Shown here: positions 4,326 through 33,410 of the stretch, one piece after another
Layout of the letters: each line of letters starts with the position of its first letter
Numbering within the stretch: position 1 is the first letter of the stretch
Assembly: GCF_004010195.1 (NCBI RefSeq)
Contig: NC_057719.1
Span: 3,007,735 to 3,044,122, forward strand
DNA length: 36,388 bases
Reading direction: 5' to 3'
Source of the DNA: Chiloscyllium plagiosum
Taxonomy: Eukaryota
Position numbers and translations under genes: made by a program
The notes under the pieces: generated by a model
What the model was told of the DNA's origin: nothing
Seen by the model: only the letters and a program-made list of their open reading frames with translations
The model's database searches: none

Positions 4326-4948
4326 TCTAGCCATCTTTAAGATCCCATCAAAAGGAAATCATTCACAGGAAAGATGATATAAGCAGACAACAACTTCCAT
4401 ATTAACTGCTTTAATTAAAACCTTTTAAAATACCATGCGCTCAATGAATAAACAAAGTAGTGGCTGGTTATGGAAAATTAGCTGCTAGCTTTCTGAATGG
4501 CATAACTCATTGTGAGCAGTGAGAGGTGTGTGTCAAGACTGCTCAGTGAATTAACTTGAGTAAAGCACCTGTCATCCTTTATTTTTGACATGTCAGAGAC
4601 AGATACAGTTTCTGTCTCTCCATACGGATTCATAGGTCATTTCTGATTGAGTGTGAGATCTGCTGATACTTGGTGACCAGGTGGGTTGTAACTTGCTGAG
4701 TAATCACAGCAAATACTAATATCTGCTGCAAGGAAAATTAATGACTGCTTTAATTCTGTGTCATGACTTTAAAAGACCATCAAAGCCCAGGATATTGTAT
4801 GCTTTGTAACTGTTGTCTCCACCTGTCCTGCCACCTTCATGATTTATCAGGTAAAGGTTGCCTCTCTGTATTTTTGTGCATTCTTAAAACATTGGGTTGA
4901 AATCTGAAAAAATATTTTTTGAAGTCATTGTTTTAAAGGGTTGCTGTA

Positions 4949-5289
4949 TTAGATTAGATTAGATTACTTAGATTAGATTAGATTAGATTACTTACAGTGT
5001 GGAAACAGGCCCTTCGGCCCAACAAGTCCACACCGACCCACCGAAGCGCAACCCACCCATACCCCTACATTTATCCCTTACCTAATTCTACGGGCAATTT
5101 AGCATGGCCAATTCACCTGACCTGCACATCTTTGGACTGTGAGAGGAAACCGGAGCACCCGGAGGAAACCCACGCAGACACGGGGAGAACGTGCAAACTC
5201 CACACAGTCAGTCGCCTGAGGCGGGAATTGAACCCGGGTCTCAGGCGCTGTGAGGCAGCAGTGCTAACCACTGTGCCACCGTGCTGCCC
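4949..5289 (-). mobile_element. HE1-type tRNA-derived SINE, full length
   Basis: Minus strand: A box TGGCACAGTGG, B box GGTTCAATTCC, conserved body, CR1-like 3' end and (TAATC)n tail; CpGs retained, so young. Confidence 0.92.
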
Positions 5290-8310: not shown

Positions 8311-8537
8311 AAGGGAGGTAGGTATTAGGGTGGTAGACTCTTTATGGTTACAGAAATTATTACACCAGACAGGAAGAATATGTGATGAACAGATCTCTCT
8401 TGAAGAAATCTACTCTCAAACAAAAGTAAAAATTGCCCTCTTTTCCTCAGTAATACTGATGAATACACTCATTAAGTGCAGAACCTCTGATGCAGGACAA
8501 AATGGCTCCTGAACTTGTTTGTGTCCTTTTCTATGAG

Positions 8538-8732
8538 GAGAAAATGAGGATTGCAGATGCTGGAGATCAGAGCTGAAAATGTGTTGCTGGAAAAGCGCAG
8601 CAGGTCAGGCAGCATCCAAGGAGCAGGAGAATCGACGTTTTGGGCAAGAAGGGCTCATGCCCGAAACGTCGATTCTCCTGCTCCTTGGATACTGCCTGAC
8701 CTGCTGCGCTTTTCCAGCAACACATTTTCAGC
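8538..8732. mobile_element. PLE family-1 fold-back mini-insertion B
   Basis: 76-bp inverted arms 8571-8646 / 8658-8733 (2 mismatches), 11-nt spacer; 33-nt unpaired tail 8538-8570; 18-bp TSD tgtgtccttttcta(t/a)gag (8520-8537 / 8733-8750); hammerhead lacks its CUGA start. Confidence 0.9.
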
Positions 8733-8934
8733 TGTGTCCTTTTCTAAGAGACCTCTTATTAGGAGATGGATGTATGGACCAGGCTATGTAGACTATGATA
8801 GAGAGTTCTACTTCTTATATTGTTATTATTTATATGTATTCTTTTCAAACAAATTAGCAAAATGGATTTCCATATGAATAAGAAGATAATTCAACAACAA
8901 AGTGGGACTTGAACCCATGGCCTTAAGACTCAGA

Positions 8935-10565: not shown

Positions 10566-10988
10566 CATGAACATCAACTAGCCACGAAACGACATGACCA
10601 GCTATCCTTAGTAGCCACATACGCAGACAACAAGCAACATGAATTCGACTGGGACAACACTACTATCATAGGGCAAGCCAGACAGAGAACAGCCAGGGAA
10701 TTCCTAGAGGCATGGCATTCATCCACAAACTCCATCAACAAACACATCGACCTGGACCCAATATACCAACCACTACAGCGGACAGCTGAAACTGACAACC
10801 GGAAGCGGCAGGGACAGACCATTATAAACACCGGAGGAAACATCAAAGAAGCACTTCGCAGGAGGCTCCCAAGCACTGATGATGTCGCCTAGCCAGGGGA
10901 TGAAACGTTTGCAACAAAAACTTCCAGCTCGGCGAACAGAACCACAACAACGAGCACCCGAGCTACAAATCTTCGCACAACTTTGAAC
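10566..10988 (+). mobile_element. Penelope-like element family 2, 3' fragment (GIY-YIG C-terminus + pseudo-LTR)
   Basis: Uninterrupted HEHQLATKRHDQLSLVATYADNKQHEFDWDNTTIIGQARQRTAREFLEAWHSSTNSINKHIDLDPIYQPL; homologous to 13705-14118. Confidence 0.9.
10873..10912 (+). ncRNA. Minimal type-I hammerhead ribozyme motif (PLE family 2)
   Basis: GCA-CUGAUGA-U-[GUCGCCU AGCC AGGGGAU]-GAAAC-GUU-UGC: helix I GCA/UGC, helix II 6 of 7 bp, palindromic ACGU helix III. Confidence 0.75.
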
Positions 10989-12483: not shown

Positions 12484-14118
12484 GGATGTAAGTTTACTCA
12501 CTGAGCTGGAAGGTTCATTTTCAGGCATTTTGTCACCATATTAGGTAAGATAATCAGTAAGCCTCCAGTGAAGCACTGATGTTAGTGACCCACTATTTAT
12601 GTGTTTAGGCTTCCTTGAAGTTTGAAGTTTAAAGGAGCACCAATGTACAGATTAGCCAAGGAGCTACACCAAAGACTAAAACACTTAGTAGAAGACTCAG
12701 ACCACTCCATCCATGCCACCCAAGAAATTCTGAAGATCACCAAAAACACCAAAATAGAATAGGATGAAATAATCGTTTCCTTTCAAGTAACAGACCTGTT
12801 CACATCCATCAACATCAACTTGGCCAAGGAACACTGACTACACTATTAGAAGAACCAAAGACACCAAACACCACCAACTTCATCAGCAAGGACAATATCG
12901 ACAGGTTGACCTAAGTCATATCACCCACTTCACTTTCAATAACAAAACCTACAGACAAACCAACGGAACCCCCATGGGATAGCCGATATCAGGGTTCTTA
13001 GTAGAGGCAGTAATGCAGAGATTCAAACAAACAGCTCTGCCAACCATCCAACCCAAACTTTGGGTCCGCTACGTGGATGACCCATCACTAAATGAAACAA
13101 ATTAGAGGAAACCTTCAAGACCATCAATAATTCCCTTACTGGTATAAAAATTCACTAAAGAGGAGGCAAACAACAACAAACTGCCATTCCTAGATATCAC
13201 AGTAGAGCGAACAGCCAATGGAGAACTTCAAACCAGCATCTACAGGAAAACACACAGACCAAATACTGAACTGCAGTAGCAATCATCCCAACATCCACAA
13301 ACGAAGTTGCATTGGAACATTACTTCAATGAGCCACCACACTGCAGCACAGAGGAACTATGAAGAGCAGAGGAAAATCACTTATGCAGTGTATTCAAGAA
13401 GAACAGGTACCCAATGAACACAGATTGCCAATTTCTCAGCAACAAACCCAAACAAGCAGACAAACGCATCCAGAAACCCCATCCACTCTCCTCTACATCA
13501 AAGACATTTCAGAAATGACTGCCAGACTACTTAGACCCTTTGGCATCATGGTAGCCCACAAACCCATCAACACACTAAAACAGCAGCTAATGGACTTGAA
13601 GGACCCCATACAGACAACAGGCAAAACTAATGTCATTTCCAAAATACCGTGCAAGAACTGTAACAAACACGACATTGAACAAACGGGCAGAAAACTAGCC
13701 ACCAGGAACATCAACTAGCCACAAAAAGACATGACCCATTCTCGCTAGTATCCTTACATATGGATGAGGAAGGGCAACACATCCATCCTAGGACAAGACA
13801 AACTAAGACATACACGAGAATTACTAGAAGCATGACATTCCAACTGGAACTCTATCAACAAACACAGTGATTTGGACCCCATTTACCACCCTCTGAGAAA
13901 AAGAGCTGGAAATGGCATCACCACAAGAAATGGCATCAACAACCCAAGGAAACCTAAACACATAAATAGAAAGCGGGTCACTGACACCAGTGCTTCACTA
14001 GAGGTTCACTGATGATATTACCTAGTACAGTGATGGAACATCTGAAAATGAACCTTCCAGTTCAGCGAGCAAACTTACATGCAGAACCTCAACCTGAGCT
14101 ACAAATTTTCTCATGAAT
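12484..14118 (+). mobile_element. Penelope-like element family 2 (decayed RT + GIY-YIG) with inverted 5' pseudo-LTR
   Basis: NGTPMG*PISGFL, WVRYVDD, LPFLDI, NVISKIPCKNCNKHDIEQTGRKLATR; 12484-12618 is the reverse complement of about 13945-14083; 9-bp TSD agatatcct (12475-12483 / 14119-14127). Confidence 0.93.
14005..14046 (+). ncRNA. Decayed hammerhead motif in the 3' pseudo-LTR (decayed antisense copy at about 12516-12560)
   Basis: UUCA-CUGAUGA-U-stem-GGAAC-AUC-UGAA; helix I UUCA/UGAA intact, core GAAA mutated. Confidence 0.55.
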
Positions 14119-14838
14119 AGATATCCTAAATTAATCTAGTCACATTTGCCAGCATTTGGCCCAGATCCCTCTAAACCTTTCCTGTTCATATACCCATCAA
14201 ATGCCTTTTCAATGTTGTAATTGTACCAGACTTTAGCACCTCTTTTTACAGATCATTCCATACACACGCCACCTTCTGTGTGAAAAACCTTAAGTTCCTT
14301 TTGAATTATTCCCCTCTCACCTTAAATATATGCCCTCTAGTTTTGGACTGGGGAAAGGATCTTTACTCTTTCTGTGCCCGTCATGATTTTATACATCTCT
14401 ATAACGTCACCCTTCAGCCTCCAATGCTTCAGGGAAAAAAGCTGCAGTCTATTCAGCCTCTCCCTATAGCTCAAACCCTCCAATTCCTTGTAAATCTTTC
14501 CTGCACCCTTTCAAGTTTCACAACATCTTTGCTAAAGCATGGAGGCCAGAATTGAATGCAGTATTGTAAAAGTTGCCTAACCAATGTCATGTCCGCAACA
14601 TGACATTCCAACTCCAATACGCAATGCACTGACCATTAAAGGCAAGCATACCAAATGCCTTCTTCACCACCCTGCCTACCTGCGACACCATTTTCAAGGA
14701 ACTAGGAACCTGCATGCCTCGGTCTCTTTGTTCAGCAACACTCCCTAGGAGAAAGTGAGGTCTGCAGATGCTGGAGATCAAAGTTGAAACTTTATTGCTG
14801 GAACAGCACAGCAGGTCAGGCAGCATCCAGGGAACAGG

Positions 14839-14878
14839 AGATTCGACGTTTCGGGCACAGGCCCTTCTTCAGGAATCC
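14839..14878 (-). ncRNA. Minimal type-I hammerhead ribozyme, intact
   Basis: GGAUUC-CUGAAGA-A-GGGC-CUGU-GCCC-GAAAC-GUC-GAAUCU: 6-bp helix I, 4-bp helix II, full core; predicted cleavage between 14845 and 14844. Confidence 0.85.
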
Positions 14879-14911
14879 TGAAGAAGGGCCTGTGCCCGAA
14901 ACGTCGAATCT
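14872..14911 (+). ncRNA. Minimal type-I hammerhead ribozyme, mirror copy
   Basis: GGAAUC-CUGAAGA-A-GGGC-CUGU-GCCC-GAAAC-GUC-GAAUCU; helix I has one A.A mismatch at the palindrome centre; predicted cleavage after 14905. Confidence 0.75.
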
Positions 14912-15499
14912 CCTGTTCCCTGGATGCTGCCTGACCTGCTGTGCTGTTCCAGCAATAAAGTTTCAACACTCCCTAGGACCTTACCGTTAACTATATAAAT
15001 CCTGCCCTGATTTGCCTTACCAAAATGCAATACCTCACATTTCTCTACATTAAACTCCATCTGCCACTCCTCGGCACATCGACCCATCTGATCAAAATCC
15101 CATTGTACTCTGAGGTAACCTTCTTCACTGTCAATTACTCCATCGATTTTGGTGTCATCTGCAAACTTACTAACTATACCTCTTGTATTCACATCCAAAT
15201 CATTTGTATAAATGACCAAAAGCAGTGGACCCAGCACCGATGCTTGTGGCACACCACTGGTCACAGGCCTCCAGTCTGAAAAACAACCCTCTGCCGCCAC
15301 CTTCTGTCTCCTACCTTCAAGCCAAAGTTGTAGCCCCCTGGGATGGCTAGCCGTCCCAGGATTCCATATGATCTAACCTTGCTAACCAATCTACCATGCA
15401 GAACCTTATCAAGCATCTTGCTGAAGTCCATATGGACAGTTTCTAATGCTCTGCCTTTGTCAGTCTTCTTTGTCACCTCCTCAAAAGATGATTAAGCTA

Positions 15500-19017: not shown

Positions 19018-19493
19018 CAAAAACAAGGATTGCAGATGCTGGACATACACACCCTGATCATTGTACATACACACGCACTGATTATTGTATGCACACACCC
19101 TGATCATTGTACATACACACACACTGACCATTGTATGCGCACACCCTGACCATTGTACATACACACGCACTGATCAATGATCAGGCAGCATCCTAGGAGC
19201 AGGAAAATCGACGTTTCGGTCAAAAGCCCTTCATCAGGAATAGAGGCATGGTGCCTGCAGAGTGGAGAGATAAATGAGAGGGGGCTGGAGGTGGGAAGAA
19301 AGTCGCATAGAGTACAATAGGTGAATGGGGGTGGGGATTGGGGTGATAGGTCATAGAGGAGGGCTTCCTTTCCACCTATCCACTCCACCCTCCTCTCTGA
19401 CCTATCACCTCCATCCCCACCCCCATTCACCTATTGTACTCTATGCTACTTTCTCCCCACCCCCACTCCCCTCTCATTTATCTCTCCACTCTG
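19018..19493. mobile_element. PLE family-1 mini-insertion D with fold-back 5' part and hammerhead at 19206-19241 (-)
   Basis: Imperfect TSD atggtt(t/c)tgtcaagg (about 19002-19017 / 19495-19509); inverted arms about 19258-19363 / 19388-19493; CUGAUGA-A-GGGC-UUUU-GACC-GAAAC-GUC. Confidence 0.85.
19043..19176 (+). repeat. 134-bp copy of minisatellite segment 17764-17897
   Basis: Identical but for one substitution, including the order of unit variants. Confidence 0.92.
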
Positions 19494-25999: not shown

Positions 26000-26181
26000 G
26001 GGGTGGCACTGTGGCTCAATGGTTAGCACTGCTGCCTCACAGCGCCAGGGACCTGGGTTCAATTCCAGCCTGGGGCAACTGTCTGTGTGGAGTTTGCACA
26101 TTCTCCCCATGTCTGTGTCAGTCTCCTCCCACAATCCAAAGATGTGCAGGTTAGGTGAATTTCCCATAGTGTTCAGGGATG
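26000..26181 (+). mobile_element. HE1-type SINE 5' half; 3' half at 29034-29155
   Basis: A box TGGCTCAATGG, B box GGTTCAATTCC; the body resumes immediately after the CR1 tail at 29033. Confidence 0.88.
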
Positions 26182-27651
26182 GTGGAAAGGACGATGGATG
26201 AGGACTTGCCATCTGAGGTAGTTTGGGCTGAGGTTCGGAATAGGAAAGGTGAGGTCACCCTGTTAGGAGTCTTTTACAGGCCTCCCAATAGTCCTAGAAA
26301 CGTAGAAGAAAGGATAGGGAAGGTGATTCAGGAGATGAGTGACAGTAATAGGGTGGTGGTTATGGGGGACTTTAACTTTCCTGATATTGATTGGGAAAGC
26401 TATAGCTCAAGTTCGTTAGATGGGTCAGTGTTTGTTCAATGTGTGCAAGAGAGTTTCCTGACACAATATGTAGACAGGCCAACAAGAGGTGACGCCATAC
26501 TGGATTTGGTTCTGGGTAACGAACCAGGCCAGGTGTTAGAATTAGAGGTAAGTGAGCACTTTGGGGATAGTGACCATAATTCGGTGATTTTTACACTCAT
26601 GATGGAGAGGGATAAGTGTGTACTACAGGGCAAGAGTTATAGCTGGGGTCAGGGAAATTATGATGCGGTGAGGCATGACTTAGGATATGTGGCTTGGAAA
26701 AGTAGACTCCAAGGCAAGAGTGTAAATGATATGTGGAGCTTGTTCAAGGAGCAACTATTGAGTGTCCTTCATAATTATGTACCTGTCAGGCAGGGAGGAA
26801 AGGGTCATGCGAGGGAGCCGTGGTTTAATAAGGAATTGGAATCCCTTGTTAAATGGAAGAGGGCGGCCTATCCCAAGATGAGACGTGAAGGTTCAATGGG
26901 GGCGATTGAGAGTTATAGGGTAGCCAGGAAGGACCTGAAGAGAGAGCTAAAAGCAGAAAGGAGGGGACATGAAAGGTCCTTAGTCGGTAGGATTAGGGAA
27001 AACCCAAAGGCTTTCTATAGGTATGTTAGGAATAAAAGAATGACTAGGGTAGGAATAGGTCCAGTCAAGGATAGTAGTGGGAAGTTGCGTGTGGAGGCGG
27101 AAGAGATTGGGGAGACACTGAATGAATACTTTTCTTCAGTATTTACTCAGGAACACGGCATTGTCGTCGATGTGAATACTGAGTCACAAATAAGTAGAAT
27201 GGATGGCTTTAAGGTATGTAGAGAAGAGATGTTGGAAATCCTGGAAAAGGTGAAAATAGATAAGTCCCCTGGGCCTGATGGCATTTATCCTAGGATTCTC
27301 TGGGAAGCAAGGGAGGAGATTGCAGAGCCACTGGCCTTGATTTTTATGTCCTCTTTGTCTACAGGAGTAGTCCCAGAAGACTGGAGGATAGCAAATGTGG
27401 TACCCTTGTTCAAAAAGGGGAGTAGGGATAACCCTAGTAACTATAGGCCGGTGAGTCTCACTTCTGTTGTGGGCAAAGTCTTAGAGAGAATTGTAAGGGA
27501 TAGGATTTATGCACATCTGGATAGGAATAATGTGATCAAGGATAGTCAGCATGGTTTTGTGAAGGGCAAGTCGTGCCTCACAAACCTTATTGAATTCTTT
27601 GAAAAGGTGACGAAGGAGGTTGATGAGGGGAAAGCGGTAGATGTGGTATAA
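26179..27651 (+). pseudogene. CR1 ORF2 fragment, 490 aa open (C-terminal APE domain, linker, N-terminal RT)
   Basis: GVFYRPP, VVMGDFNFPDIDW, LDLVL, GDSDH, SPGPDGIYP, NYRPVSLTS, QHGFVKGKSCLTNL; 5'-truncated; TAA replaces the Y of VYMD 6 nt before the gap. Confidence 0.95.
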
Positions 27652-27657
27652 ATGGAT

Positions 27658-28419
27658 NNNNNNNNNNNNNNNNNNNNNNNNNNNNNNNNNNNNNNNNNNN
27701 NNNNNNNNNNNNNNNNNNNNNNNNNNNNNNNNNNNNNNNNNNNNNNNNNNNNNNNNNNNNNNNNNNNNNNNNNNNNNNNNNNNNNNNNNNNNNNNNNNNN
27801 NNNNNNNNNNNNNNNNNNNNNNNNNNNNNNNNNNNNNNNNNNNNNNNNNNNNNNNNNNNNNNNNNNNNNNNNNNNNNNNNNNNNNNNNNNNNNNNNNNNN
27901 NNNNNNNNNNNNNNNNNNNNNNNNNNNNNNNNNNNNNNNNNNNNNNNNNNNNNNNNNNNNNNNNNNNNNNNNNNNNNNNNNNNNNNNNNNNNNNNNNNNN
28001 NNNNNNNNNNNNNNNNNNNNNNNNNNNNNNNNNNNNNNNNNNNNNNNNNNNNNNNNNNNNNNNNNNNNNNNNNNNNNNNNNNNNNNNNNNNNNNNNNNNN
28101 NNNNNNNNNNNNNNNNNNNNNNNNNNNNNNNNNNNNNNNNNNNNNNNNNNNNNNNNNNNNNNNNNNNNNNNNNNNNNNNNNNNNNNNNNNNNNNNNNNNN
28201 NNNNNNNNNNNNNNNNNNNNNNNNNNNNNNNNNNNNNNNNNNNNNNNNNNNNNNNNNNNNNNNNNNNNNNNNNNNNNNNNNNNNNNNNNNNNNNNNNNNN
28301 NNNNNNNNNNNNNNNNNNNNNNNNNNNNNNNNNNNNNNNNNNNNNNNNNNNNNNNNNNNNNNNNNNNNNNNNNNNNNNNNNNNNNNNNNNNNNNNNNNNN
28401 NNNNNNNNNNNNNNNNNNN
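27658..28419. other. Assembly gap (762 N)
   Basis: Run of N. Confidence 1.
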
Positions 28420-29240: not shown

Positions 29241-29780
29241 CAGGACTGTGAGAAACTACAGAAGGTGGTGTGCACAGCTCAGACCCAGACCACCACGGAA
29301 GCCAACTTTCTATCCATGGACTCCATATACACGGCTCACTGCCACGGAAAAGCTGCTGACATCATCAAAGACACATCATGCCCCAGTAATGATCTCCTAC
29401 AACCTGTCAGACAGAAGATACAGAAGGCAAAAGTGAGGACTGCAGATGCTGGAAACCCTGAGTTTAGATCAGAGTGGTGCTGGCAAAGCACAGCAGGTCA
29501 GGCAGCATCTGAGGAGCAGGAAAATCGACGTTTCGGGCAAAAGCCCTTCATCAGAAGATACAGAAGCCTGAGCACACACACCAACAGGTTCAAGGACAGC
29601 TTCTTCCCTGCTGTTATTAGATTGATGAATAGACTCTCTCGCTTCAATGAGCAATGTATGCCTCTGTCTAAGTCTTTCTAATCTGTACATCCTTGCTTAC
29701 CATGACCTTCTTACCTTGCTCATAAACAAAGCTTTTCACTGTACTTCAGTACACTTGACAATAAATCAATCAGTCAATCA
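29241..29780 (+). mobile_element. Rex1/Babar-like LINE 3' end containing PLE mini-insertion E
   Basis: QDCEKLQKVVCTAQT...AADIIKD...RRYRSLSTHTNRFKDSFFPAVIRLMN; (aatc)n tail. Confidence 0.85.
29427..29551 (-). mobile_element. PLE family-1 mini-insertion E with intact hammerhead core at 29527-29554
   Basis: 15-bp TSD cagaagatacagaag (29412-29426 / 29552-29566); CUGAUGA-A-GGGC-UUUU-GCCC-GAAAC-GUC; element ends exactly at the start of the core. Confidence 0.92.
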
Positions 29781-30284: not shown

Positions 30285-31475
30285 GTAGTGGTAGATCATG
30301 CCTCACAAATTTATTAGAGTTTTTTGATGAAGTGACCAGGAAGGTTGACGAGGGCAGTGTAGTAAATGTAGTTTATTTGGATTCCAGTAAGGCCTTTGAT
30401 AAGGTTCTACATGGTAGGCTACTCTGGAAGGTTAGATTGTATGGAATTAAGGGGAAGCTGGCAAATTAGATACACAATTGGTTTGATGGTAGGAAGCAGA
30501 GGGTAATAGAGGAAGAATGCTTATCGGACTGGAGGTCTGAGACTAGTGGAGTGCCTCAGGCATCTGTGCTGGGCCCATTGCTGTTTGTTATCTATATCAA
30601 TGATTTGGATGAGAATATACAGGCATGGTTAGTAAGTTGGCTGATGACATTAAAATAGAAGGTATCATGGACAGTGAGGAAGGTTCTCAGAAATTGGAGC
30701 ATTCTTGATCAGCTGGGGAAGTGGGCCGAGAAATGGCAAATGGAGTTTAATATAGATAAGTGTGAGGTCTTGCATTTTGGAAAGTCAGTTCAAGGTAGGA
30801 GTCTCATGGTGACTGGTAGGGCCTAAAGGAGTGTAGTGGAACAGAGGGACCTTGGAGATCAGGTTCTCTGAAAGTGAAGTCACAGGTAGACAAGGCAGTG
30901 AAGAAGGCTTTTGGCACACTGGCCTTTATCAGTCAGGGCATTGAATATGGAAGTTGGGAAGTTGAAGTCAAAAATGGTGGTGCTGGAAAAGCACAGCTGA
31001 TCTCGGGCAGCATCCGAGGAGCAGGAGGGTCGATGTTTCGAGCATAAGCCCTTCATCAGGAATACTGGGGGGGGGGGGGGGAAAGGTCATGGGAGGTTGG
31101 GCCCATGGGGGCAATAAATGGGAGGGAGGTGTGGGAGGGTGGCTAGAATTTGGTGATGGAGCAGGCCTAGGACTTGTATGTCCGTGGCGAAGTGGGAGGG
31201 GGAGTTGAAGTGTTCAGCCACAGGTTGATGGGATTGTTTAGTGTGTGTGTCCTAGAGATGTTCTTTGAAACATTCCCGCAATTTGGCATCCTGTCTTCCC
31301 AATGTAGAGGAGACCACATTGAGAGCACTTCCTTCTATGGAAGTTGGGAAGTTATGTTGCAGTTATACAGGATATTGGTAAGTCCGCACTTGGAGTATTG
31401 TGTTCAGTTTTGATCACCTTGTTATAAGAAGGATGTTATTAAACTGGAAGGAGTGGAGAAGAAATGTAAAAGGAT
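30285..31475 (+). mobile_element. CR1 RT fragment (30285-30963 + 31336-31475) split by PLE insertion F
   Basis: [41 protein letters not shown]. Confidence 0.9.
30964..31335 (-). mobile_element. PLE family-1 insertion F: pseudo-LTR with hammerhead (31028-31063) plus GIY-YIG remnant
   Basis: 18-bp TSD tatggaagttgggaagtt (30946-30963 / 31336-31353); minus strand about 31330-31250 reads CSQCGLLYIGKTG...FKEHL. Confidence 0.88.
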
Positions 31476-32014: not shown

Positions 32015-32146
32015 GGTTAAAAACAATGACTGCAGATGCTGGTAACCAGATTCTGGATGAGAGGCGCTAGAAAAGCTCAGCAGTTCAGGCAACATCCGAG
32101 GAGTAGTAAAATCGACATTTCGGGCAAAAGCCCTGATTCTGGCTAA
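32015..32146 (-). mobile_element. PLE family-1 mini-insertion G, truncated within the hammerhead
   Basis: 10-bp TSD gtgtacacca (32005-32014 / 32147-32156); homology ends at ...cgggcaaaagccct (32134). Confidence 0.85.
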
Positions 32147-32239: not shown

Positions 32240-32460
32240 CTGAAAATATGTTGCTGGAAAAGCGCAGCAGGTCAGGCAGCATCCAAGGAACAGGAGAATC
32301 AACGTTTCGGGCATAAGCCCTTCTTCAGGTCCTAACTTTCTCCTCGAAGATTTTAACCTACTGCAAATCCTCTTACAAGGATGCCTTCCTTGAAGAAGCT
32401 CTCTTCCTCCCAAAAAGGATCAGCTCTGATCTCCAGCATCTGCAGTCCTCACTTTCTCCT
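32240..32460. mobile_element. PLE family-1 mini-insertion H (3' tail on +, inverted hammerhead segment on -, extra internal 90 bp)
   Basis: TSD cttaa(t)caagaggtg (32225-32239 / 32459-32472); minus strand 32301-32328 reads CUGAAGA-A-GGGC-UUAU-GCCC-GAAAC-GUU. Confidence 0.88.
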
Positions 32461-32687: not shown

Positions 32688-33410
32688 AACGATGGTGGTT
32701 CTGACCCCCATAATTATGCAGTATTGTGAGAGGTTAGTCATGGTTCGCTTTGGCTCTAGCCTCCCAGGAGAAAGTGAGGACTACAGATGCTGGAGAGTCA
32801 GAGTCGAAAAGGGTGGCACTGGAAAAGTACAGCCAGTCAGGCAGCAACCAAGGAGCAGGAGAATCGACGGTTCGTGCATAAGCCCTTCATCAGGAGGGTG
32901 GGGTGGTGGGGGCGGGGTGGGGGTGGGGGGGTGGTGGTGCGGGGATGTGGCGGAGGTGGTGGTGAAGGGAGTTGAGAGATAAATAGGAGAGTGGGGCTAT
33001 GGCTGTGGGGAATGTAGCTGGGAAGGCGATAGGTAGGTGGAAGTTGGGGGAGGGAGTGATGGTGATAGGTCGGAGGGAAGACTGGAGCAGATAGTCCAGC
33101 CTACCTTGATCCCTTGCAATTTGCCAATCGGTGCAACAGATACACAGCAGATGCCATCTCCCTGCCCCTACACTCATCCCTAGGACATCTGGGTAATAAA
33201 AATATCCACGTCAGGCTTCTACGTATTGACTACAGCTCTGCCTTAAACACTATAATCCCTACCAGACTTATCTCCAAACTCCAAGACCTATGTATCTGCC
33301 ATGGCCTCTGCAACTGGCTCCTCAGCTTCCTGACCCACAGGCCGCAAGCAGTGAAGAGAGGGAACAGCACCTCCTCCATGATAGTCCTCAACACTGGCAT
33401 CCCACAAGGG
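32688..33410 (+). mobile_element. Rex1/Babar-like RT fragment split by PLE insertion I
   Basis: VVLTPIIMQYCERLVM | DPLQFA...TADAIS...HVRLLRIDYSSALNTIIP...LNTGIPQG. Confidence 0.85.
32766..33093 (-). mobile_element. PLE family-1 insertion I with decayed hammerhead (32862-32896)
   Basis: aggagaaagtgaggactacagatgctggag terminus; G-rich pseudo-LTR like copy D; possible degraded TSD tc(t/c)agcct. Confidence 0.85.

Follow-up and report, generated by a model that had tools for sequence, protein, structure and literature searches.

How does a perfect palindrome that carries a hammerhead ribozyme motif on each strand come to lie within a LINE of Chiloscyllium plagiosum? With its tail and flanking duplications, the palindrome occupies positions 14736 to 14978 of the window, by which we mean the whole stretch of 36,388 nucleotides that was analysed. 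It consists of two identical pseudo-LTR (pLTR) ends of a Neptune-type Penelope-like element (PLE), placed head to head within one 15-bp target-site duplication (TSD), and we think it likely that it arose in a single event of dual target priming. Its parts and its host are as follows, with element positions such as +91 counted from the C of CUGAAGA.

14561..15372 (examined part only), minus strand: host, a decayed LINE reverse transcriptase (RT) coding region, split by the insertion
14736..14750, no strand: left TSD, 15 bp, with its last 4 nt shared with the end of the PLE tail (microhomology)
14747..14782, minus strand: PLE tail, 36 nt between the outer end classes at about +91 and about +126, which are likely two RT start sites
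14783..14874, minus strand: left arm, a PLE pseudo-LTR end in minus-strand sense that runs on into the tail
14839..14878, minus strand: minimal type-I hammerhead motif, core from 14872, predicted cut after 14845
14872..14911, plus strand: minimal type-I hammerhead motif, core from 14878, predicted cut after 14905, one helix I mismatch
14875..14875, no strand: central unpaired junction base, A or T relative to the tail (14:16 across copies)
14876..14967, plus strand: right arm, the same pseudo-LTR end in plus-strand sense, ending at the proximal end class without a tail
14964..14978, no strand: right TSD, of which the first 4 nt are common to TSD and arm end

The two arms are each 92 nt long, lie 1 nt apart and are 100% complementary, and the flanking direct repeat of 15 nt is 100% identical, in agreement with an earlier note on this DNA. 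Excision of the insert together with one TSD copy yields an open LINE RT frame again (…GKVLGSVAEQRDRG…) with a match to Pfam RVT_1. Because removal of the insert restores the host frame, we regard the palindrome as a true insertion inside a LINE, as had been claimed, and the direct repeat as a true TSD; the LINE is one that we take to be CR1 or CR1-like. The tail, given as 32 nt in the earlier note, is indeed one-sided but is 36 nt long, with 4 nt at each outer end shared with the TSD. The insertion had also been called very young. It is young, but so is the whole family, and it is not exceptional in this respect since perfect arms are common. We sampled 82 palindromes, mostly from one contig, namely 30 with the junction found here and 52 others from contig C1 (11 preselected as palindromes). 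The arms lack any difference in 51 of these, 36 differences occur in 13,618 arm bases, and the chance of zero differences in 2x92 nt is about 0.6.

The proposed origin of the arms in a PLE pLTR is borne out by a second locus, L216, in which an 893-aa frame of RT, linker and GIY-YIG endonuclease is followed by the 3' UTR and then by the arm, letter for letter. Copies that reach upstream of the hammerhead likewise lead into GIY-YIG and RT coding sequence. The L216 frame scores 33 bits against RVT_1 (cut-off 29.6) and 21.2 bits against GIY-YIG, just below the cut-off of 22.6, while L082 reaches 22.9 bits for the latter. A C-x4-C-x2-C linker lies between RT and GIY-YIG in L216, and its GIY-YIG has a CCHH finger; both agree with the CCHH arrangement (two Cys between GIY and YIG) and the CX2-5CxxC linker set out in PMC8557442. 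By its sequence, the parent reads as an EN+ PLE of the Neptune/Nematis linker type, the linker being the only feature that assigns it to the Neptune type. Searched against the sequences in the PDB, the RT region of the parent gave no match at E<=1. Downstream of the tail, the element runs into the N-terminal region of the ORF (363 exact matches), so arm and tail together constitute the pLTR. The left arm is identical to the pLTR downstream of the 893-aa frame in L216, the right arm shows 0 differences from the reference copy, and the tail is identical to the parent pLTR in L107 at 35 of 36 nt. Since the N-terminus of L216 is rearranged, this locus was not taken as an intact master. Its ORF N-terminus (about 4500-5061) contains four in-frame repeats of about 40 aa, which are probably frame-keeping duplications by template jump.

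The hammerhead boxes can be read on both strands as the earlier note described; the minus-strand helix I has 6 bp, and that of the plus strand contains one mismatch. Helix I of the parent element has 4 bp only, and the 2 extra pairs on the minus strand are contributed by the opposite arm, an accident of the junction. With a CUGANGA/GAAA/NUH core, an extra base before helix II and a palindromic 15.2-16.2, the motif reads as the minimal dimer-type hammerhead that had been proposed, and it agrees with what PMC4209133 gives for minimal type-I PLE hammerheads, including a helix I of 4-5 bp. Rfam gave no match to any hammerhead family at E<=1; the only Rfam matches were to miRNA hairpins, far below threshold and reflecting the hairpin alone.

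The motif occurs on both strands because two copies of one pLTR end are joined head to head. Each transcript has a single sense ribozyme, and its own antisense arm is transcribed earlier. The suggestion that the hairpin would silence the ribozyme is supported by predicted folding: for the minus-strand transcript the full hairpin is at -198.5 kcal/mol, compared with -138.7 kcal/mol with the hammerhead forced, which puts the hairpin ahead by 60 kcal/mol, and the full hairpin of the plus-strand transcript is predicted at -203.6 kcal/mol. For a short leader RNA of the parent, prediction puts the hammerhead fold within 0.5 kcal/mol of the minimum, so the block would come from the palindrome. Minimal hammerhead ribozymes (HHRs) were inactive as monomers (PMC4209133), and neither monomer nor cis-dimer folding is expected of a motif paired with its own full antisense. 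The two ribozyme motifs are probably inert passengers. The earlier note had likened the ambisense layout to viroid- and retrozyme-like RNAs. Ambisense viroid-like RNAs are circular and rod-like, with an active ribozyme in each polarity; here, both polarities carry the motif as perfect complements that are predicted to block each other. A self-propagating ambisense RNA finds no support, and the joining of pLTRs head to head is enough to give a ribozyme on both strands.

The palindrome is one of thousands of short head-to-head PLE stubs. Exact-pattern searches of the 3.56-Gb genome, in which reversed-pattern controls gave 0 each time, found 11,344 matches to a 46-nt stretch of the hammerhead arm and 21,607 matches to a 34-nt stretch of the distal arm. 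When gaps of at most 30 nt are allowed, the head-to-head junctions number 2,679, and 216 of these (8%) have the exact 45-nt centre of the palindrome under study. About eight further arm-like copies lie in the window. One of them is a second head-to-head stub, from a sister subfamily, at 8520-8750, with 82-nt arms at 95%, one tail, a 5-nt centre without the hammerhead core and an 18-bp TSD whose copies differ at one position. Stubs with a single arm, from related PLE subfamilies, lie at 502-672, 19181-19241, 29412-29566, 30981-31067, 32028-32142, 32241-32460 and 32766-32895; several have TSDs, and the helix II loop reads CUGU, UUAU, UUUU or UCAU on a kept stem.

Other arrangements and neighbouring sequences were also observed. 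The same family forms 224-nt head-to-tail units of hammerhead, arm, tail and ORF-start piece (L093-L096, L117-L118 and G000:C8:24157659-24158535), with at most five in tandem; these are retrozyme-like and could in principle form a dimeric ribozyme. In a partial tandem in L105 (about 1370-1790), the second unit begins exactly at the -4 edge, after an ORF-start piece, as expected if a template jump took place at the 5' end of the RNA. At L037/L038, L047 and G000:C1:18072167, 25850387 and 26033219, a longer palindromic insertion recurs, with an arm spacing of 264-269 nt and the same flank each time; it is probably carried within another repeat. Within the window, 13332-13718 is a C-terminal piece of another PLE-like endonuclease that has no Pfam match, two hammerhead-like motifs at 10876 and 14009 come from unrelated PLE families, and a 493-aa open LINE frame at 26170-27651, reading from endonuclease into RT, ends in a 762-nt assembly gap (27658-28419). 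The flank in L102 (about 2066-2735) has a 223-aa frame that may resemble a retroviral envelope fragment. Sequencing runs labelled as four other organisms contain 15-27% of the words of the stretch, with the arm or the host LINE as a possible source. No RNA run is among those listed for the stretch, which has no bearing on expression.

The outer ends of the stubs follow a simple rule. The 3' ends of the arms are bimodal, at about +91 and about +126, and one long and one short end, meaning exactly one tail, are found in 81 of the 82 sampled palindromes, the exception being a rearranged copy. Single-arm copies occur with both outer end classes. A TSD of 12-18 bp, with a mode of 14-15, is present in 77 of the 82. 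Among these 77, TSD and element overlap by at least 2 nt at the tail end in 34 and at the other end in 39, compared with about 19% under a simple null, and this excess suggests short pairing between primer and RNA. The two end classes are likely two RT start sites, by analogy with the Anolis element PAc. In PMC11167929 the tail of PAc is described as bounded by two RT start sites next to each other, together with cutting and extension of both strands, a predicted dimer and HHR cleavage that is dispensable in vitro. The main text of the same paper reports neither homology nor a difference between the strands in start site in vitro, which weakens the case for dual priming.

The inner ends also fall at a preferred position. 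Among 95 unselected arms in the first ~16 Mb of contig C1, 56 reach -7..-1, where 42 end and from where 14 continue upstream. Counted in 7-nt bins, the share of arms that stop in a bin they reach is 1-6% between +55 and +7, 24% for 0..+6 and 0-14% upstream. Stops at the edge are scattered over -6..-1 and not confined to one base, and single-arm copies have the same edge (19/47). It lies on TCATTCC, which is initiator-like, the initiator (Inr) consensus being YYANWYY. Judged from these genomic edges, the inner edge may be the RNA 5' end, that is, a transcription start. An internal promoter with an Inr has been described for Penelope (PMC2377424). The lack of an excess of cap-derived G before -4 (11/53), the spread of the edge and the 24% of stops at 0..+6 speak against a transcription start. 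Two other sources of the edge were considered and rejected: the ribozyme cut (+28), because only 2 of 89 arms stop in that bin, a scarcity in line with the dispensability of HHR cleavage in vitro (PMC11167929), and splicing, as in D. virilis, because there is neither an AG acceptor nor a common upstream exon. In palindromes, the arm without a tail reaches the edge more often than the arm with one (42/57 vs 22/54), and the longer arm may be on either side (30 vs 17, with 5 equal). We dropped this bias as proof of one RNA because it is also present in single-arm copies (16/21 vs 11/22) and does not discriminate.

We propose the following course of events. The PLE RNA would start at the initiator-like TCATTCC, likely between -6 and -3, at the 5' base of hammerhead helix I. 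Two nicks some 14-15 bp apart, one on each target strand, would be made by the PLE protein, which probably acts as a dimer. Reverse transcription from one nick would begin at the proximal RT start (about +91), and from the other at the distal RT start (about +126), with priming aided by 1-4 nt of pairing between target and RNA. With both start sites in the 5' leader of the RNA, each cDNA would come to the end of the RNA, one after about 95 nt and the other after about 130 nt, and their 3' ends would anneal at a microhomology before fill-in. At the locus studied here, both cDNAs would end in AAT and pair round a central mismatch that repair could resolve either way. The product is predicted to be a dead-end copy, with no ORF, the Inr context lost and a read-through RNA that forms a 92-bp hairpin in which the ribozyme is buried.

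The junctions between the arms provide a record of how the arms were joined. By hand count, the first 50 loci listed comprise 29 junction types; the studied junction accounts for 5 of the 50, two other types are equally frequent, and 5 of the 50 have the perfect junction with no unpaired base. Several types keep native bases beyond the studied centre or have added bases, so they do not descend from that centre by deletion. Palindromes are prone to later central deletion, which could be another source of the shorter types. The same set of junctions recurs in subfamily B, where the studied junction was counted by hand at 3 of 56 loci listed; 51 of 51 informative loci have B letters on both arms, 5 of the 56 being uninformative (also a hand count). 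No private variant is shared among the 30 sampled copies of the studied junction, and in 4 cases a private variant was found on both arms. Read relative to the tail, 16 of the 30 copies have T at the centre and 14 have A (p=0.86 against 50:50); a 31st copy, L002, has a rearranged arm and was left out, and its inclusion would give 16:15. This pattern points to repeated de novo formation and not to a master palindrome. Two cDNAs of the same sense that end in AAT and anneal round one mismatch would produce such a random central base. The absence of mixed A/B arms and the four variants on both arms fit one RNA, but also separate bursts or conversion between the arms.

For head-to-head PLE palindromes, Arkhipova et al. 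(2013, PMC3846280) proposed self-priming on an antisense template. In this rival reading the antisense RNA, or else the first cDNA, would fold back and be extended, and the endonuclease would resolve the far end, leaving the tail. Self-priming explains the identity of the arms, the lack of mixed A/B arms and the four variants on both arms, and at some junctions a microhomology is accompanied by a 5-nt loop. However, junctions with 0-1 unpaired bases, such as the 216 copies of the studied junction and the perfect type at 5 of 50 loci listed, leave no room for a loop. Fold-back of a single strand would also fix the central base relative to the tail, whereas 16:14 was seen, and both the occurrence of the longer arm on either side and that of single-arm copies with both outer end classes speak against it. 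We regard self-priming as an unlikely origin of these stubs.

Alternatively, a master palindrome may give rise to a transcript that is mobilised as one unit in trans, the ribozymes on both strands having a function as in retrozymes or ambisense RNAs. The earlier note had asked whether the fold-back point is unique in the genome. It is not, as 216 copies have the exact 45-nt centre, with clean TSDs; non-autonomous PLE derivatives are known (10.64898/2026.07.22.740005), and the central base would come out random here too if a palindromic RNA were dually primed. A self-propagating family is not supported by these copies, however, given 29 types among 50 loci listed: the studied junction makes up 8% of 2,679, is one of those 29 types and occurs at 3 of 56 loci listed in subfamily B. 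The 30 copies have no junction-specific variant, and a master copied linearly would fix the central base, which the ratio of 16:14 argues against. The longer junctions hold native bases past the centre that deletion cannot supply. The hairpin is predicted to be 60 kcal/mol more stable, with a single sense ribozyme per strand and minimal monomers that were inactive (PMC4209133). Neither a structure fixed by descent nor diagnostic variants, as would characterise a SINE- or MITE-like family with one master, were found. A master palindrome is therefore, in our judgement, quite improbable.

There is similarly little chance, we believe, that dual priming is right but that the inner edge is an RT stop at a bound or folded site, or a processed RNA end, and not a transcription start. 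This reading draws on the exact coincidence of the edge with the 5' strand of helix I, on the lack of an excess of cap-derived G before -4 (11/53), and on the roughly one quarter of arms reaching the edge that go on upstream (14/56). An RT moving 3' to 5' would, however, have opened helix I before arriving at the edge, and the copies that pass it are as expected if long RNAs are primed on their downstream pLTR. A processed end is at odds with the lack of an AG acceptor and of a common upstream exon, and the upstream CUC triplet, as read from the letters, could not pair into a hammerhead cut site. Finally, an assembly or library fold-back artefact, brought to mind by N gaps near many copies and by contigs of four runs that, placed on the left flank and left arm, are too fragmented to bridge the locus or to reveal a filled or an empty allele, is almost certainly not the explanation, since removal of the clean 15-bp TSD restores the host frame and the family-wide rules hold, each palindrome having its own TSD in 77 of 82 cases and one tail in 81 of 82.

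L1 twin priming also uses a primer from each of the two target strands. It yields an inversion with microhomology at the join, and its cDNAs cover adjacent parts of the RNA; the cDNAs of the stub would instead cover the same part of the RNA, from two fixed starts, and so give a palindrome. DNA-transposon MITEs have symmetric terminal inverted repeats and a short TSD of fixed length. A MITE was rejected here because the ends are variable and, with the tail, asymmetric, the TSD is 12-18 bp and the arms come from a retroelement.

The architecture of the stub is already published. The insertion unit of EN+ PLEs comprises a pLTR, an adjoining inverted 5'-truncated copy, a one-sided tail of 30-40 bp and a TSD (PMC8557442; PMC3846280), and the stub, with its 36-nt tail and 15-bp TSD, has the same parts in the same arrangement as these elements (Craig et al. 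2021; Arkhipova et al. 2013). The stubs differ in that they have no ORF, that both copies stop at one preferred edge 5' of the hammerhead, and that they occur as near-perfect palindromes of ~215 bp in thousands of copies, with TSDs of 12-18 bp. The Poseidon element PAc of Anolis (Frangieh et al. 2024, PMC11167929) is alike in its two adjacent RT starts bounding the tail, in double-strand cutting and extension and in a dispensable HHR. It belongs to a different clade, however, and the stubs use one start per side in 81 of 82, with target microhomology; the main text of the PAc paper does not model the inverted copy. Metazoan PLE minimal hammerheads (Cervera and de la Pena 2014, PMC4209133) share the core boxes, the G-C base of helix II and the short helix I, and close pairs on opposite strands are described in Schistosoma (PMC4209133), but the stub motif differs in having its own complete antisense as a pairing partner. 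Like the stub, non-LTR (animal) retrozymes (bioRxiv 10.64898/2026.07.22.740005) are non-coding and pLTR-derived, with a type I HHR. They form head-to-tail tandems with HHRs on the same strand, whereas the stub is head to head, with one sense HHR per strand, and falls outside this class. Among open-licence papers, we found neither an ORF-less, edge-defined palindromic stub in thousands of copies nor dual priming by a PLE. The origin of the inverted repeats and one-sided tails of PLEs is called an open question in PMC8557442.

Taken singly, the element is an ordinary, dead-end PLE stub. We suggest tentatively, and with somewhat less than even confidence, that the stubs are a genome-wide in vivo record of the missing step in Penelope transposition, in which a PLE dimer primes both target strands simultaneously, one at each start site of one RNA, and the ends of the two cDNAs anneal with each other. 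If this is true, a single mechanism would underlie the inverted pLTR of all EN+ PLEs, their one-sided tail and their junction palindromes, and dual priming would replace the antisense self-priming model. As a consequence of internal initiation, most events would then be lost on the 5' leader of the enzyme's own mRNA. The at least 2,679 near-perfect hairpin templates in the genome are a possible source of dsRNA directed against the element, and possibly of cruciform instability. The family makes the question of PLE integration directly testable: the single tail in 81 of 82 palindromes, the coin-flip central base, the junctions without a loop and the lack of mixed subfamily arms are counts that separate the models, and what they predict bears directly on the in vitro system that exists for PLEs (PMC11167929).
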